Below are positions 1 to 48,337 of a DNA stretch of 64,000 nt, in pieces. The stretch spans positions 3,544-67,543 of the forward strand of contig JACQDT010000001.1 of assembly GCA_016200965.1 (NCBI GenBank), in the 5' to 3' direction. Position 1 is the stretch's first letter. Each line of letters begins with the position of its first letter. The notes beneath the pieces were generated by a model. The model did no database searches and was not told the origin of the DNA. It saw nothing but the letters and a program-made list of their open reading frames with translations. The position numbers and the translations under genes are program-made. Origin of the DNA: Candidatus Azambacteria bacterium (GTDB lineage: Bacteria > Patescibacteriota > Minisyncoccia > GWC2-36-17 > WO2-46-25).

Positions 1-107
1 GCGTTTCTGCGCTGATGCGCATCGTAGAGACCTTCCCCTTTTCATCAAGAGAAAACGCGGGAAACTCTTTATGGATAGCCTGTATTGTTGCTTGGAGTGT
101 CGGCATG

Positions 108-20395: not shown

Positions 20396-21793
20396 TCACT
20401 TTTTAGGAGGAGCGGGAACCGCCTCCGGCGGTTTGTTGATGTGCAACGTAAAGTGCGGAAAAACAGAACGCGCTTCGGCGTCAAGAAAAAAACGGAGAGC
20501 GTCTTCAAGCGCAACGCGCTGTTTTGCCACCAGATCCGCATCAAAAAGCAGATCGGCGGTGCTGTGCTTGACGTTCAGCTTGCCGTTAAGCTGGCCAAAA
20601 CGCTCGTTCAGCTTCGGGCCCAGCGCGGCATCAAGGGCTTTATCAATCCCCCGATCAAGCTGTTCTTTATCTTTCCACGCCTGCCACACGGAGATGAAAT
20701 CCTCCTTTTTTTTCATCATCCGATAATCCACCGTGACGGGCAGTGCAATTCTCCGCGCTCCGTCAATGAACGTGAACGTTTTTGGAAAAGAACCGTCAAC
20801 AGGCACGCCCGGCACGACCCGATACCGGAAGTGATTGATAGTGTTTTTCTCCCAGGTGAGAAAGTGGTCGCCTATTTTAAGCGGCAAGCGGGCCACAAAC
20901 TCCCCCGACTTCCGGTCAACAAGCACCGCATGGTCTTCTACGGGATTCTTTTCGTAGACACTTAAAGGAATCCAGAACGAAAGCGAAGCATACAGCACCA
21001 TCACTGCAATCACGCAAGCGCTTGTCCGCCAATAAAGGTTCCTCCTGCTATTTGCCCGCAAGCCAAACATGAGGAAGCACGCGACCACCACAGAAGCAAG
21101 AGTGGAAAGAAACAAACCGATCGCGCCCGAGATTCGCCAGTTGAAAATCCAATACCAGACGATCTCGGCAAGGCATCCGATGAGCAGAGTGAAATCGCGC
21201 GCCGTTTCAATCCTGTTTTGGTTTCTTTGTATCCACGGAGCAAGAAACCGAAGCATCCTTGATCCTTGACGCCAGAACGCGCCGACTGCCCGGCCTATTG
21301 CTCCCCCTATCTGGCTCACCGCTCTCCGCATTGATTTTTGCGCTTCCTTTGCCCAGCTTGTCGCTTCGTTGAACTCTCGTTCAACCTGCACAATACTGCA
21401 TGCGTTTCCCGAAAGCAGAAGCGACATCACCGGCCACAGCTTTGTTTGAAGCGGTTTCTGGGCATAGCCGTCAATGCGAAAGCTCTCTTTACAATACTCG
21501 GACTCGCCGGAAGCCAAATGATAGAGCGTCACGCCGAGCCGCCGGAACGATTCCCGCAAATCGGGGACCCCGTTTTTTGCCTCAAAGCGGATCTTCCTTC
21601 CGCGATGAATCTCAATGCGGTTCGGCGGAAACGATACGTATTCCCCCTTCTGGGCACCTTTGGCGCATTCATTCAGAAGAACCTTTGCTACGGCAATCAG
21701 CTCTTTCTCGTCCATCACGAGTTGTTTCCTCTGTTCGGCCATTGTGTAACCCCCTTTCCTTTGAGTGTAGTGCATGAAATTCTCAACGTGCAT
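20396..21793 (-). CDS. membrane protein with C-terminal SPFH/band-7-like region (hypothetical)
   Basis: Central TM segments. C-terminal VTVDYRMMKKKEDFISVW region with a charged coiled-coil tail, reminiscent of SPFH proteins. Confidence 0.35.
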   Translation of the reverse strand: MHVENFMHYTQRKGGYTMAEQRKQLVMDEKELIAVAKVLLNECAKGAQKGEYVSFPPNRIEIHRGRKIRFEAKNGVPDLRESFRRLGVTLYHLASGESEYCKESFRIDGYAQKPLQTKLWPVMSLLLSGNACSIVQVEREFNEATSWAKEAQKSMRRAVSQIGGAIGRAVGAFWRQGSRMLRFLAPWIQRNQNRIETARDFTLLIGCLAEIVWYWIFNWRISGAIGLFLSTLASVVVACFLMFGLRANSRRNLYWRTSACVIAVMVLYASLSFWIPLSVYEKNPVEDHAVLVDRKSGEFVARLPLKIGDHFLTWEKNTINHFRYRVVPGVPVDGSFPKTFTFIDGARRIALPVTVDYRMMKKKEDFISVWQAWKDKEQLDRGIDKALDAALGPKLNERFGQLNGKLNVKHSTADLLFDADLVAKQRVALEDALRFFLDAEARSVFPHFTLHINKPPEAVPAPPKK

Positions 21794-43227: not shown

Positions 43228-43308
43228 ATCGCCAATGTTACCACAAAAGGAAAACGAAAGACCAGAGCGCCGCGGCGCTCTGGTCTTTCACCGGAATATC
43301 AGCTCCGT

Positions 43309-44040
43309 TCAGGAATCTTTGGATGCTAATTTCTTTACTGCAACGTAGAGTCCTCCACCCACAAGAAGCATGATAGCAAACCCAACAACTATCGCAACAA
43401 GGGTGCTGTCGGTGCCGAGAGTCAGAACGCTTGCAGCCAGAAACAGCGCGGGGCGCTGTGGCAGTTCCGGAGCCGGCTCGCCTGCCGTTACTGCCACGAC
43501 GGGTAGTGGCTTTTCGGTCACGACGACGCCTGGTTGCGACTCCCCACTTCCCACAACAGGCAATTCCGCGCTTGCCCCTGCCTCTCCGCTCGTGGCAAGA
43601 GGGGAAAACAGTGCGGGTGATGTTTCGGCGGGCTGAGAAGAAGCGGGGGCTTGTACCGCAGGCGGCGCCGGAGTAACTTCCGTCACGGGAGCAGGTTGCG
43701 TAACGAAACTATACTCTGAAGCGTCGAGAATCTCGTTTGAGATAAGCCGGAAGTAATAGAGCATCGCCGGCGTAAGCCCATTGACAGTCACGCTGTGATG
43801 CGTCACCCCGCTCGGGTCAAATGTTGAAGTGGAAAACGCATAGCCGTAATTCGGGCCAACCGAGCTTGTGCTATGCGCCGCGGTGTCGTACACCACGCGG
43901 CTGGTGGAATTGTAGTTCGTGCTCCATGTTACGGTCGCAGTATTATCTGTGGTCGTCGCGGAATCCTCAATGGTTGAAAACGCATAGCCATAATTGGGCG
44001 CGTCGCCTAAAACCGGATGTGAAACAATATCATAAATCAC
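43309..44040 (-). CDS. cell-surface protein fragment (C-terminal part of adhesin-like gene; FN3-like repeats, TM anchor)
   Basis: Repeated SRV(I/V)YD ... GPNYGYAFST modules and a C-terminal TM helix. Same reading frame as 44068..45018, separated from it only by one TGA. Confidence 0.5.
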   Translation of the reverse strand: MIYDIVSHPVLGDAPNYGYAFSTIEDSATTTDNTATVTWSTNYNSTSRVVYDTAAHSTSSVGPNYGYAFSTSTFDPSGVTHHSVTVNGLTPAMLYYFRLISNEILDASEYSFVTQPAPVTEVTPAPPAVQAPASSQPAETSPALFSPLATSGEAGASAELPVVGSGESQPGVVVTEKPLPVVAVTAGEPAPELPQRPALFLAASVLTLGTDSTLVAIVVGFAIMLLVGGGLYVAVKKLASKDS

Positions 44041-44067
44041 ACGGCTTGTATCGGAAAAGTCCGTTGT

Positions 44068-45018
44068 TCACGTAATAACGGTTGAGGTTTGCTCCGCTCC
44101 CGCCGCCGCCTCTTGGCTGATGACGAGCAGTTTATGATTGCCGAAGTCAACGCCGTTGATTACATCTCCCAGATGGACAGTAATGGGGTCCGAGCTAGAC
44201 GCCGTTTGTGTCCAGCCACTTTGCGGGACCTCACGAACATTATACGTTCCCACCGATAAACCGGAAAATGTATAATTACCGCTTTCGTCCGTCGTGGTTG
44301 CTGTTTCGCCTTCGGTGAATATTCCATCGTCATTAGCATCAAAATAAATAGTCCACCCCGCAATCCCCGGATCACTTTCATCCTTAACGCCATCACCATC
44401 TTGGTCGTTGAACTTCGTACCAGAAATTGTTCCCGGCTGATCATCATTGGTAATAGTGCAAAGAGCCGTCTGGCCAAGCGCGAGAGCAACCGTACTGGTT
44501 GCAGTTTGTGTACCCGTACCGGTACAAACCCAATCGCTTGCCGCGTAGCCGGCGGGGCCTGATTCGGAAAGCGTGTACGTGCCAGCGGAAAACGTCGCAT
44601 CGCTGGAAGTCGCGCCCGCTCCTGAAATTGAAGTCGGACCGGTTGCCGTCAGCGTCCAGTCGGTGGTCGTTGCCGCGCCGCCGTTGTCGTTCACCACGAC
44701 TTTATTAAGCGTAAGCGAAGGCGTGATGTCGTCGTTGGTGATAGTGCAGGTTTTATTTTGACCAGCCGTCAGTGTGATAGTGCCATTGGCGGCGCAATCA
44801 CCGCTGATGGTTCCCGTGTAGCCAGCTTGTGAGGTCTCGGAGACGGTGTGAAGGTCTGCCGATGTCGTGCTCGCCACGCCGCTTGTGACGGAGAAGCCGT
44901 CAATGAAAAGAGGAAAGTCGGCAACGACTTTCGTGCCGCCGTTGTCGTTGACAACAATTTTGGTGACGGTAAGCGTGGCGGTGGTTGGAGCCGCTTTAAG
45001 AGCAACCTGCTGCGCCAC
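44068..45018 (-). CDS. cell-surface adhesin-like protein fragment (central part; DUF11 and SdrD-B/Cna-B-like repeats)
   Basis: Repeated TLT(V)TK(I/V)VVNDNGG ... CTITNDD modules. KFNDQDGDGVKDESDPGIAGWTIY SdrD-B-like segment. The ORF stays open upstream to 45345 with no start codon. Confidence 0.5.
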   Translation of the reverse strand: MAQQVALKAAPTTATLTVTKIVVNDNGGTKVVADFPLFIDGFSVTSGVASTTSADLHTVSETSQAGYTGTISGDCAANGTITLTAGQNKTCTITNDDITPSLTLNKVVVNDNGGAATTTDWTLTATGPTSISGAGATSSDATFSAGTYTLSESGPAGYAASDWVCTGTGTQTATSTVALALGQTALCTITNDDQPGTISGTKFNDQDGDGVKDESDPGIAGWTIYFDANDDGIFTEGETATTTDESGNYTFSGLSVGTYNVREVPQSGWTQTASSSDPITVHLGDVINGVDFGNHKLLVISQEAAAGAEQTSTVIT

Positions 45019-45295
45019 CCACTTATCAACGCCACCGCTGGTTAGAGAACTTTTTGTACCAGTCGCGCCAACGACTGCTTGTGTGTAGTCATCTGCAGTT
45101 GTGGCTGGCTTACCACCAGCATTCGCAAGATCATAACGTTCAGAGGCTCCAGCGACTATAGCGAATGTATCAGAACTTTCCTCCGCAAAAAATACAACTA
45201 CAAGATCATTAGCTTGAGTCGTTGTTATTGAAGGAGCTAAGGGAGTATCAGTATTACCAGTATTTCCATCATCAGCATCAATGGGACTAGAAGTA

Positions 45296-45670
45296 TCAAC
45301 TCCAGCGTAACGGATAATGCCTCCTGCCGGCTGGCGGAGTAATGGTCACATCGCTACCTTTATCGACAGCAATGCCAGCAATTAGAAAGTCACCAGAAAC
45401 GGTTAAAGAAGGTTTACTAATGACAAGAGTGGTCGCTCCGCCAGACGCGTTTGCGGCTGATTCAACTGAACCGAAACTTATCGCCGCAAAAACAGGCGAA
45501 ACAGAAGCCGGCAAAAAAGCCATGGTGGACAACACCATCGCCGCGATAACCCATGCCGAAAGGAGCGGGGTCAGCAACGCGCTTTGTTGCTTCGCGTATC
45601 CACGCAGACCTCCGGAAAAAATCCGCAAGAATTTTCCCTGCCTATGCTTTTTGTATACTCTTTTTGGCAT
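45296..45670 (-). CDS. cell-surface adhesin-like protein fragment (N-terminal signal-anchor part)
   Basis: Signal anchor LLTPLLSAWVIAAMVLSTMAF. The C-terminal 17 codons overlap the -1 frame that continues into 44068..45018. Confidence 0.45.
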   Translation of the reverse strand: MPKRVYKKHRQGKFLRIFSGGLRGYAKQQSALLTPLLSAWVIAAMVLSTMAFLPASVSPVFAAISFGSVESAANASGGATTLVISKPSLTVSGDFLIAGIAVDKGSDVTITPPAGRRHYPLRWS

Positions 45671-45723
45671 ATAATCTATTTAATTAAACATTAAAAACGT
45701 GAAAAAGTCAACATTACAGGGTA

Positions 45724-46527
45724 TTGACAAGATTATTGCTATGGTGTATAATTTGTTTTGTTACAATGTTTTTTGACAAACCAATAACCACACTCACAAA
45801 GGAGGGAACTGTGAAAAACGCCAAGAAAACAGCGAGAAAAAGCGTTATCGGAATACTGCTTTTCCTGATCGTCTTTTCGTCCGGATCGGTCACGGCCCTG
45901 CTCATGTCGGAACGGCTGGCTAAAACCTCCATCCCGACAATCGCTCCGAGCGTCATTCCCAACGCCTCCCCCATTCCCGGGGCGCTAGTGGCGGAGAGGG
46001 TAACTCCTCTTCCAACACCGCCGGCCGCCGAAGAAAAGTCCGAGGTGAAGACCGTGAAAGTAAAAACGTACTACATGGTTCAACCGTACGATTCCATCAA
46101 TGGGATCGCCGCGAAGTACGGCGTACTCCCCTGGCAACTGCGGGAGGTAAACGGGATGAAGCCGGGAGTGATCATTCACCCCCTGCAGAAGCTTGTTATC
46201 CCCGATGTGAAATGGAAATCGCGCAAGTACATCGGAAAAGCATCCTGGTACGGAGGCCGAGACAACGGAAAGCCGATGGCAAATGCTGAAATATTCAACC
46301 AGCATGAGATCTTGATTGCCCATCGCACGCTACCGTTCGGAACAAAAGTACGCGTGACGAATTTGATAAACAGCACATCAATCGTCACGATCGTGAAAGA
46401 CCGCGGCCCCTACCCGCAAAAAAACGAAAAGTACACGCGGGAAATCGACCTCTCCTACGGCGCCGCCAAAGCGCTCGGCGCAGTGAAAGCGGGAGTGATT
46501 CCCGTTGAGATCACAATCCTTTCGTGA
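45724..46527 (+). CDS. LysM-domain / RlpA-like (double-psi beta-barrel) peptidoglycan-binding lytic transglycosylase-like protein
   Basis: LysM: YMVQPYDSINGIAAKYGV ... LREVNG. RlpA/3D DPBB: GKASWYGG ... IAHRTLPFGTKVRVTN ... VKDRGPY. Confidence 0.7.
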   Translation: MTRLLLWCIICFVTMFFDKPITTLTKEGTVKNAKKTARKSVIGILLFLIVFSSGSVTALLMSERLAKTSIPTIAPSVIPNASPIPGALVAERVTPLPTPPAAEEKSEVKTVKVKTYYMVQPYDSINGIAAKYGVLPWQLREVNGMKPGVIIHPLQKLVIPDVKWKSRKYIGKASWYGGRDNGKPMANAEIFNQHEILIAHRTLPFGTKVRVTNLINSTSIVTIVKDRGPYPQKNEKYTREIDLSYGAAKALGAVKAGVIPVEITILS

Positions 46528-46549
46528 GTGTGGAGAATGAATAAAAAGA

Positions 46550-46587
46550 AAACTGCGACCCCACAACATCGGGCCGCAGTTTTTTTA
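46550..46587. terminator. bidirectional rho-independent terminator (aaaaCTGCGACCCC..GGGCCGCAGttttttt)
   Basis: 9-bp stem with one mismatch, flanked by A and T runs, between convergent genes. Confidence 0.55.
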
Positions 46588-46607
46588 TTATCGTTTTATT
46601 ATTACTA

Positions 46608-47024
46608 TTATCTCCTTACTTTTGATTCAACAAGGACAAGCCGCCGTTCAAGTGCGGCAAATTCATCGTAGTCGACTTTTTTCTTGAGACCGCCCTTGAT
46701 AAATTCAACATCGGTTTTAATGATTTCAACATCGGTTTTGGTAGTCGCGATATCCACCTTCATCACTTCAATGTCTTCTTTCATTGATCCGATCATTTCA
46801 GTATGTGCATTGAGGGTCTCCGTGTGCGAATCAAGGGTCTCCGTGTGCGAATCAAGGGTCTCTTTGATCCTTCCAATGTCTTTTTTTATGTCCACGTATT
46901 GTTCAGCGACAATTTTGACTTGATTTTTAAAGTCCTCGCTTAAAGTGCTTATGTGTCTTTTCACATCTTTGTTGTATTCCTTCAGTATGGTTTTTATTTT
47001 CGGATCGCTTGTCTGTTTCTTCAT
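46608..47024 (-). CDS. hypothetical coiled-coil protein with ETLDSHT repeats
   Basis: 138-aa charged, heptad-rich ORF. Direct repeat ETLDSHTETLDSHTETLNAHTE. Confidence 0.35.
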   Translation of the reverse strand: MKKQTSDPKIKTILKEYNKDVKRHISTLSEDFKNQVKIVAEQYVDIKKDIGRIKETLDSHTETLDSHTETLNAHTEMIGSMKEDIEVMKVDIATTKTDVEIIKTDVEFIKGGLKKKVDYDEFAALERRLVLVESKVRR

Positions 47025-47083
47025 GTGCCTATTTTATCACGCTGAAAAATCGGAAGTCAAATTCAAATGTGTATATCAGATTT

Positions 47084-48337
47084 TTACCTCCCGAACGGAC
47101 GGTGGGCGCGGGGTTGGAAGCGCCAGCCGCCGCCGCGAGTTGACCCGCGGTGGGCGCGGGGCGCGGGGCGCGAAAATTCCGAAAGCGACACATGCGGCAG
47201 ATCCGGGTGCTTGGCCACCGGCAATGATTTGCGGATGAGGCGTTCTATGGCGTGCACTTCACTGCCTTCGTCTGGCATGGCGAACGTGATGGCGTGGCCT
47301 TCCGCGCCGGCGCGCGCCGTGCGGCCGATGCGGTGCACGTAATCATCCGAGGATGAGGGAAGATCGTAGTTCAGCACGAGCTCAATGCCCTTCACATCAA
47401 TGCCGCGCGAGGCGATGTCTGTCGCAACCAGCACGCGGTACTTTCCGAATTTGAATCCGTCCAGCGCTTCTCTGCGCTGAGAAAGCGAGCGGTTGGAATG
47501 GATCTCCGCGACGCGGATGTTCAGCCCTCTGATGTACTGCGTCACTTTCCGCGCGCCGTGTTTTGTGCGCGTGAATACGAGCGTCGGACCCTGATACGTT
47601 TCAAGGAGTTTTGCGAGCAGGGTTGCCTTCTGGTCGCGCGAGACGATGAAAAGCTCCTGCGTAACGCGCTCGGCGGTCGTGCCCGTCGGCGCGATTTCCA
47701 CCCGCGTGGGCAGTTTCATGTGCGTTGCCGCCATCTTCATGATCTCCGAAGGCATCGTGGCGGAAAAAAGCATGGTCTGGCGTTCTCTGGGAAGCGCGTT
47801 TAAAATTCTTTGGATCTGGGGCATAAAACCCATATCAAGCATGCGGTCCGCCTCGTCAAGAACAAGGATGGACACGCCGTCCAAACGCACATTCCTTTGT
47901 TCCATATGATCAATAAGCCGTCCGGGAGTCGCGACGATAACGTGCGGCCTCCGCGCAAGCGCCTGTTTCTGCGGCCACAAAGAAGTGCCGCCGATGAGCA
48001 CCGCCGTGCGAAGCCCGAGGGTCCCGCCGACTTTCCGCAAGGCCTCTTCCACCTGCAAAGCAAGCTCGCGCGTGGGGAGCACCACAAGCCCCTGCCCTTT
48101 CCCGCGCGACAAATGCTGGATCATGGGAATGCCGAACGCGAGCGTTTTTCCCGTACCCGTTTGCGCGATGCCCACCACGTCTTTCCCCTGAATCGCCGAA
48201 GGGATCGCCTGCGCCTGAATGGGAGTGGGCGTTTTAAAGCGAAGCTTCTCCAAAATTTCCAAAATCGCCGGGGCGATGCCCAGACCGTAAAAACCATTAG
48301 CGATATTTTGTTCGGGATGTTGCTGTCCGGTTATCAT
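47084..48337 (-). CDS. DEAD-box ATP-dependent RNA helicase with Arg/Gly-rich C-terminal tail
   Basis: Q-motif. AQTGTGKT (motif I), DEAD (VLDEADRMLDMGF), SAT, and HRIGRTARAG (motif VI). Confidence 0.85.
   Translation of the reverse strand: MITGQQHPEQNIANGFYGLGIAPAILEILEKLRFKTPTPIQAQAIPSAIQGKDVVGIAQTGTGKTLAFGIPMIQHLSRGKGQGLVVLPTRELALQVEEALRKVGGTLGLRTAVLIGGTSLWPQKQALARRPHVIVATPGRLIDHMEQRNVRLDGVSILVLDEADRMLDMGFMPQIQRILNALPRERQTMLFSATMPSEIMKMAATHMKLPTRVEIAPTGTTAERVTQELFIVSRDQKATLLAKLLETYQGPTLVFTRTKHGARKVTQYIRGLNIRVAEIHSNRSLSQRREALDGFKFGKYRVLVATDIASRGIDVKGIELVLNYDLPSSSDDYVHRIGRTARAGAEGHAITFAMPDEGSEVHAIERLIRKSLPVAKHPDLPHVSLSEFSRPAPRAHRGSTRGGGWRFQPRAHRPFGR

Follow-up and report, generated by a model that had tools for sequence, protein, structure and literature searches.

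Organization of the locus

The reverse strand of a 64,000-nucleotide stretch of a Candidatus Azambacteria genome (hereafter the window) carries three consecutive reading frames that appear to derive from a single cell-surface-protein gene (Table 1). Frame A opens with an ATG at 45670 and ends at a TGA at 45296–45298. An open stretch in the +1 frame reaches from 45345 to a TGA at 44068–44070, and past that stop the same frame runs on to a TGA at 43309–43311. The two frames overlap at 45296..45345, and homology places the switch between them at 45324–45326 (…cca gcc ggc / a / gga ggc att…). The first start codon in the +1 frame below 45345 is a GTG at 45018, and that stretch holds no signal peptide. 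The original prediction had read ORFs 45296..45670, 44068..45018, and 43309..44040 as pieces of one surface-protein gene of roughly 780 aa, and this reading holds: relatives align across both breaks, the conceptual translation is 786 aa, and six-frame translation reproduces both the shared frame of the last two pieces, parted only by the TGA at 44068–44070, and the extension of 44068..45018 upstream to 45345, where it overlaps the first. The switch had been placed near ggcaggaggc (about 45325), the very string in which homology now locates it, and the TGA does fall inside a repeated module: T*TTDFSDTSRVIYD recurs 48 codons on as TWSTNYNSTSRVVYD. The pattern goes beyond chance: relatives can be aligned to either side of both breaks, and the window contains no other in-frame stop that splits two long open stretches within one homologous domain.

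Table 1. Features of the disrupted gene, in window coordinates (asterisk, stop codon).
Feature	Position	Strand	Basis or remark
Whole gene, probable pseudogene; conceptual 786-aa surface protein	43309..45670	-	Three CDSs in GenBank (124, 316, 243 aa)
N-terminal hydrophobic signal anchor LLTPLLSAWVIAAMVLSTMAFLPASVSPVFA, basic N-terminus before anchor	45485..45577	-	Read from sequence alone
N-terminal all-beta domain, first part (frame A), ends ITPPAG	45326..45484	-	Homologue alignment
Putative deletion junction: last base of PPAG Gly codon (45326), orphan a (45325), first base of GGI (45324), +1 frame	45324..45326	-	
Out-of-frame tail of fragment 1 (RRHYPLRWS*), no homology	45296..45325	-	
N-terminal domain remainder, +1 frame (GGIIRYAGVDTSSPIDA…APSITTT…GATGT…)	44989..45324	-	Homologue alignment
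SpaA_2 prealbumin-like module 1	44728..44979	-	Pfam, two stretches; bounds set by eye from repeat
SpaA_2 prealbumin-like module 2	44440..44721	-	PF19403, whole-protein E 1.9e-31
SdrD B-like module	44137..44433	-	PF17210, 44.5 bits (cut-off 29.7)
FN3-like module 1, first half only (AEQTSTVIT*TTDFSDTSRVIYD…PNYGYAFSTIEDS)	43960..44097	-	Comparison with P0049
In-frame TGA in place of invariant Trp (TGG), FN3-like module 1	44068..44070	-	Homologue alignment
FN3-like module 2, complete	43696..43959	-	PF16656 Pur_ac_phosph_N, 32.2 bits (cut-off 30)
Pro/Ala/Ser-rich low-complexity linker	43450..43695	-	Sequence
C-terminal FLAA motif and TM helix	43336..43449	-	Sequence
Basic tail KKLASKDS	43312-43335	-	Sequence
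Intrinsic-terminator-like perfect 17+17 palindrome, then T-run	43253..43292	-	Directly past gene end

Domain architecture and relatives

Matches to SpaA_2 (PF19403) score 108.9 bits against a gathering threshold of 25 and fall in two stretches. The signal anchor, SdrD-B-like module, and C-terminal TM helix proposed in the original prediction are all present, but the DUF11 modules (PF01345) named alongside them find no Pfam match at E ≤ 0.1 in any piece; two SpaA_2 modules and a Pur_ac_phosph_N module were found instead. The N-terminal all-beta domain has no sequence match in Pfam, NCBIfam, or the PDB. A sortase-anchored LPXTG surface protein was considered and rejected, as the motif is absent from the sequence and the NCBIfam anchor models reach 12.8 bits against a cut-off of 27.

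A search with the full-length protein was dominated by SpaA_2-rich proteins, and only P0021, P0049, P0080, and P0104 were informative. Three of these (P0021, a 'fibronectin type III domain-containing protein' of a Patescibacteria group bacterium, P0080, and P0049) are surface proteins of Patescibacteria/CPR with the same modules in the same order, namely SpaA_2 repeats, SdrD_B, a linker 'FGNHKLLV(I/L)SQEAA', and an FN3-like region, and they end much as this gene does, in a low-complexity linker, [LF]LAA, a TM helix, and a basic tail. They differ in being uninterrupted, in lacking synteny with the locus (L004 being the contig of P0049), and in their N-terminal domains, which are DNRLRE in P0080 and FN3-like in P0049. 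A leader similar to the signal anchor is nonetheless present in P0049. The overall layout also resembles Gram-positive stalk adhesins and pilins (MSCRAMM-like) in its signal sequence, distal putative binding domain, prealbumin-like/SdrD-B stalk, and C-terminal hydrophobic anchor with basic tail; the present gene differs in that no LPXTG/sortase model reaches its cut-off, the tip domain is unmatched, the host belongs to the CPR, and the gene is broken.

No intact syntenic orthologue emerged. The locus is flanked by a LysM-DPBB gene and an LTD-PKD gene. A scan of genome contigs anchored on the LysM-DPBB neighbour yielded nothing beyond L005, a distant CPR locus without synteny, and in a scan of metagenome contigs the sole match was L006, which has the N-terminal leader in common with this gene. 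The 90% clusters held no intact near-identical copy, and no paralogue that might have served as a recombination donor was found in the window.

Disruptions of the reading frame

Comparison with relatives indicates that far more than a single base has been lost at the frame switch. In all 12 junction-spanning relatives of the N-terminal domain, ITPPAG is separated from GGIxAYSGVD by 39–46 residues (WTLxR…SYTWT…) that this gene lacks, so that relative to every one of them about 40 codons (3n+2 nt) are absent here, a length sized against relatives 30–70% identical, no close syntenic orthologue having been found. The frame change therefore appears to follow from this loss; the frameshift of the original prediction is real, but it is an out-of-frame loss of about 40 codons rather than a 1-nt slip, and a simple 1-nt indel is ruled out by the missing codons. 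When P0127, an intact relative, is modelled with AlphaFold (pLDDT 89.5, pTM 0.83), the missing stretch corresponds to residues 53–92, which include strands E54-61, E65-73, and E80-85; on this model, the residues lost are three core beta-strands of the N-terminal domain. Such a deletion would both remove these strands and shift the frame, and translation from the only signal-bearing start would stop after 124 aa.

The TGA at 44068–44070 occupies a position at which Trp is invariant in P0021, P0080, P0049, and P0104 (…STVISWTTD…), and P0021 matches closely over about 60 residues across the stop (…FGNHKLLVLSQEAA…TSTVISWTTD…). The TGA is therefore best explained as a TGG>TGA nonsense mutation in FN3-like module 1. 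By alignment, then, the gene is broken by at least two independent lesions. There is probably a third: FN3-like module 1 ends after …NYGYAFSTIEDS and is joined directly to module 2, whereas P0049, whose module 2 is 70% identical to the one here, has two complete modules, and the second half of module 1 together with the linker is missing by comparison. This would represent an in-frame loss, although the ancestral two-FN3 layout is drawn from relatives 30–70% identical.

Recurrence in other assemblies

The same disruptions occur in other assemblies. A second MAG (GCA_016178885.1; L001) has an identical junction and encodes an identical 124-aa product, while the Logan assembly of SRR12113410 (L002) is 100% identical and contains both lesions, as does that of SRR12113409 (L003), which differs by one SNP at 44789 that it has in common with the second MAG. 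The contig of the second MAG ends at 44430 and the Logan contigs at 43260; among the other assemblies, the TGA is present in the Logan contigs. Counting the present genome, and judged on assembled sequences rather than raw reads, the junction is found in four assemblies and the TGA in three, across two MAGs, two runs, and two SNP haplotypes, and with more than one assembler. The single intragenic SNP is synonymous and, the lesions aside, the reading frame of roughly 2.3 kb has stayed open, which argues that the decay is recent.

Alternative explanations

Consensus error, which the original prediction had offered as one explanation, would leave the true gene intact, and the metagenomic origin of the genome and the breaking of other contigs in or just past the locus lend it some plausibility. 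It is nevertheless very unlikely, because both main lesions recur unchanged in independent assemblies; in addition, Illumina consensus errors do not typically remove about 120 nt, and neither site has a homopolymer. Phase variation, a second explanation put forward at the outset, would make this a contingency gene switching by slipped-strand mispairing, and a surface-protein gene whose frame is broken near its 5' end has the usual layout of such loci. However, both TRF and direct reading show 45325 and 44068 to be free of homopolymers and short tandem repeats, and the closest TRF match is a weak 9-mer (x2.2) at 45249-45268. The frame change is accompanied by the loss of about 40 codons, slippage cannot reverse a nonsense substitution, and the assemblies show no length variation at the lesions, unlike at a 21-nt repeat 1.5 kb away that does vary. 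Where contingency genes have a repeat tract, this locus has a large deletion and a substitution, and slippage is the least probable of the explanations weighed here.

The breaks might instead be overcome during translation, with a +1 shift at AGG AGG and the TGA read as Trp or selenocysteine yielding low amounts of full-length protein. The usual near-cognate reader of UGA is tRNA-Trp, which would suit a TGA at a Trp position, and the 0 frame does contain AGG AGG at 45320-45325, AGG being the rarest Arg codon here (4.3 per 1000), with the ORF continuing in +1. Tandem AGG_AGG can cause up to 50% frameshifting in over-expressed Escherichia coli mRNAs (PMC5009743), a case that likewise pairs a 0-frame motif with an ORF that goes on in +1. 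Here, in contrast, the motif is created by the deletion junction, and an ordinary gene (20396..21793) also carries the codon pair in frame. Frameshifts and stops at these positions are absent from the relatives, all of which are contiguous and longer by the residues described above, and the shifted product would still lack about 40 tip-domain residues, including the three core strands. As for the TGA, selenocysteine, which had been raised as a possible recoding, does not fit, given that the aligned residue is an invariant Trp and not Cys; there is no SECIS-like hairpin 3' of the TGA, the RNA folding no better than shuffled sequences (MFE z -0.83), nor any Rfam match at the site, and the 64-kb window has no tRNA genes at all, tRNA-Sec included. 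An alternative code with TGA as Trp or Gly was likewise rejected, since TGA is the ordinary stop of 13 of the 58 other called genes in the window and no other domain there is interrupted by an in-frame TGA. Rescue by recoding thus seems as improbable as consensus error. Somewhat less remote, though still unlikely, is that each of the three ORFs is a functional gene in its own right, for example a 243-aa membrane-anchored FN3 protein and a 124-aa small anchored protein. They are entered individually in GenBank (MBI3684838.1, MBI3684837.1, and MBI3684836.1) and each has a possible start codon, but their boundaries run through folded domains, the 316- and 243-aa pieces, each beginning at a GTG within a domain, have no signal peptide, and the split is absent from all homologues.

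A probable decayed surface-protein gene

Taken together, homology extends across each disruption, the disruptions recur in DNA assemblies, and no recoding signal that could restore the protein was found. We consider it highly likely that the locus is a recently inactivated, apparently fixed cell-surface-protein pseudogene of Candidatus Azambacteria (Parcubacteria/CPR), so that the pseudogenized adhesin, among the three explanations first proposed, is the one favoured by homology spanning the breaks and by lesions recurring between assemblies. The ancestor was probably about 830–900 aa long and may have comprised a signal anchor, an all-beta 'tip' of about 190 aa (an unannotated family), a stalk of two SpaA_2 modules and one SdrD-B module, one or more FN3-like modules, a Pro/Ala-rich linker, and a TM anchor. 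Its disruption would entail loss of function, and loss of the gene was presumably tolerated or favoured.

Decayed surface-protein and adhesin pseudogenes are a general phenomenon in host-associated or reduced-genome bacteria. The present locus is similar to these in that several independent lesions lie in a recognizable ORF and appear fixed, being present in every covering assembly; it differs in belonging to an uncultivated groundwater Azambacteria MAG, and a literature search on CPR pseudogenes found nothing specific. There is a slim chance, below that of three separate genes, that the lesions silence the gene incompletely, through a hungry-codon +1 shift at AGG AGG combined with near-cognate Trp read-through, or that the fragments are kept as separate anchored products. 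Were silencing incomplete, a trickle of shortened surface protein would result, and this CPR episymbiont would have a crude means of turning down an adhesin-like protein at the level of translation.

As a pseudogene the locus is real but ordinary, and it has no bearing on changes in the genetic code, the use of selenocysteine, or phase variation. For annotation, the three GenBank CDSs ought to be combined into a single entry marked as a pseudogene, which would prevent CPR MAGs from giving rise to inflated gene counts and spurious 'FN3 protein' families. The loss appears fixed in two closely related haplotypes, and it offers a small data point on how streamlined, probably episymbiotic Parcubacteria turn over their surface proteins, namely through decay by ordinary deletion and nonsense mutation.

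Results

The locus is very probably a genuine pseudogene of recent origin, with several lesions, of a CPR cell-surface protein, which GenBank (Candidatus Azambacteria bacterium MAG, 88.6-kb contig) wrongly lists as three genes. The originally predicted coordinates of its pieces agree with the ORF listing and six-frame translation, as tabulated here.

Positions of the pseudogene pieces and associated features (window coordinates unless stated)
Feature	Position	Details
124-aa piece	45296..45670	minus strand; 124 codons, ATG at 45670 to TGA 45296-45298; MBI3684838.1 (HY250_00290)
316-aa piece	44068..45018	minus strand; +1 frame, open from 45345 to TGA 44068-44070; MBI3684837.1
243-aa piece	43309..44040	minus strand; same frame onward to TGA 43309-43311; MBI3684836.1
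Leader	45485..45670	…K.QS.LLTP..SAWVIAAMVLS…
Deletion junction	45324-45326	PPAG Gly codon ends 45326; orphan 'a' 45325; GGI starts 45324
Three-part C-terminus	43312..43449	
Palindrome	43256..43289	perfect, 17+17 nt, no loop, then T-run
21-nt tandem repeat	46813..46862	perfect, 2.4 copies
Same repeat in L001	241..267 (contig)	one copy fewer
Gene holding the repeat	46608..47024	minus strand; small coiled-coil-like protein
Ordinary gene with AGG AGG	20396..21793	

The in-frame stop at 44068-44070 (…AEQTSTVIT*TTDFSDTSRVIYD…PNYGYAFST…) breaks a motif that repeats 48 codons on (…TATVTWSTNYNSTSRVVYD…PNYGYAFST…). P0021, from a Patescibacteria group bacterium, matches closely across it, and all four uninterrupted relatives with the same C-terminal architecture carry tryptophan in this invariant column (P0021, …STVISWTTD…; P0080, …SAIITWDTD…; P0049, …SAVITWLTD…; P0104, …AVVGWFTN…). 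TGG to TGA is one transition, and the TGA is a nonsense mutation of a conserved Trp codon.

The conceptual N-terminal domain, used as a query, retrieved a family of ~190-aa domains for which sequence comparison gave no match in Pfam, NCBIfam or PDB. At the junction the window reads …DKGSDVTITPPAG directly followed by GGIIRYAGVDTSSPIDA…, whereas every relative spanning this point reads …ITPPAGWTLxR…SEPxSYTWT…xGGIxAYSGVDTxSPIDA…, with 39–46 extra residues (median 41) precisely there. The single orphan base between the PPAG and GGI codons points to a loss of 3n+2 nt, roughly 120–125 nt. The predicted frame switch is present, but it is the scar of an out-of-frame deletion. In a confident all-beta AlphaFold model of the intact relative P0127 (pLDDT 89.5, pTM 0.83), the residues absent from the window (53–92) cover strands E54-61, E65-73 and E80-85, a loss that would hollow out the domain even if the frame were kept.

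A probable third lesion is an in-frame deletion of ~75 codons from a two-module ancestor, judged by comparison at the paralogue level. The first FN3-like module ends after …NYGYAFSTIEDS and a complete second module follows directly, whereas P0049 has two full modules with a linker between (module 2 being 70% identical to the window's). With P0021 and other one-module relatives as the reference, this stretch reads as a 47-residue half-module insertion; under either comparison the window holds one and a half modules.

In Pfam the middle and C-terminal pieces matched SpaA_2 (two stretches, E 1.9e-31), SdrD_B (44.5 bits) and the FN3-like Pur_ac_phosph_N (32.2 bits, cut-off 30); of the DUF11/SdrD-B-like modules predicted, SdrD_B was recovered and DUF11 gave no match in the pieces. 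The predicted signal anchor and TM helix can both be read from the sequence: the N-terminus has a hydrophobic anchor, and the C-terminus a hydrophobic helix with a basic tail after it. The C-termini of the window protein and of P0021, P0049, P0080 and P0104 share a layout of [LF]LAA motif, ~15–20 residues, TM helix and basic tail, which resembles sortase/exosortase sorting signals; no NCBIfam sorting-signal model reached cut-off for it. The leader recurs at the N-terminus of P0049 and on the metagenome contig L006 (6001..6273), and the basic N-terminus and anchor are 44% conserved over residues 1–89 in otherwise unlike Hainich groundwater surface proteins, which suggests a common leader on modular, shuffled surface proteins.

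The pseudogene has as its neighbours a LysM-DPBB (RlpA-like) gene, transcribed divergently, and, downstream, an LTD-PKD surface-protein gene; DEAD-box helicase, P-type ATPase, AddA-like helicase-nuclease, cupredoxin and thiol-redox genes lie farther off. The palindrome and T-run directly 3' look like an intrinsic terminator. Two Logan contigs (L002, L003) both end inside it, at 43260, probably an assembler break rather than biology. The window contains no paralogue, the collections searched yielded no syntenic orthologue, and a scan with exact peptide patterns of its own LysM-DPBB gene did not find the species in GTDB-representative genomes.

Discussion

The original prediction offered consensus errors and phase variation beside a pseudogenised adhesin. 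A contig of a second MAG (L001; GCA_016178885.1), covering 47100..44430, differs by 2 SNPs and a single indel, in the 21-nt repeat, with junction and 124-aa product identical. L002 (SRR12113410) is 100% identical to 47336..43260 and L003 (SRR12113409) has a single SNP, at 44789, with L001's allele; both hold junction and TGA. The junction is thus the same in four assemblies and the TGA in three, representing two runs and two haplotypes, and neither site has a homopolymer or simple repeat, so that consensus error and slipped-strand phase variation are both unlikely. By contrast with these invariant lesions, the 21-nt repeat is a genuine length polymorphism of near-identical strains, in frame, gaining or losing the 7-aa unit TLDSHTE.

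Selenocysteine insertion, also raised originally, is at odds with a TGA that aligns with Trp rather than Cys, with 3' RNA no more stably folded than shuffled controls (z = -0.83) and with a 64-kb window that gave no Rfam match at gathering thresholds and contains no tRNA genes. Because TGA ends 13 of the 58 other called genes in this densely coding window, and 44068 is its only in-frame stop splitting two long open stretches within one homologous domain, the organism uses the standard genetic code. Functional recoding through a +1 shift at the AGG AGG created in frame by the junction is very improbable. The ORF does continue in +1, AGG is the window's rarest Arg codon (4.3 per 1000), and tandem AGG_AGG promotes +1 shifting in over-expressed E. 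coli mRNAs (PMC5009743); however, an ordinary gene contains the pair too, none of the relatives is frameshifted here, and the shifted product would still want three core strands. We regard the motif as an accidental consequence of the deletion.

The pseudogene reading of the original prediction is the one best supported, by a TGA at a conserved Trp and an out-of-frame deletion shared across assemblies. It is an ordinary type of feature; its main use is annotation correction, from three CDSs to one pseudogene, and it provides a small example of surface-protein turnover among Parcubacteria.
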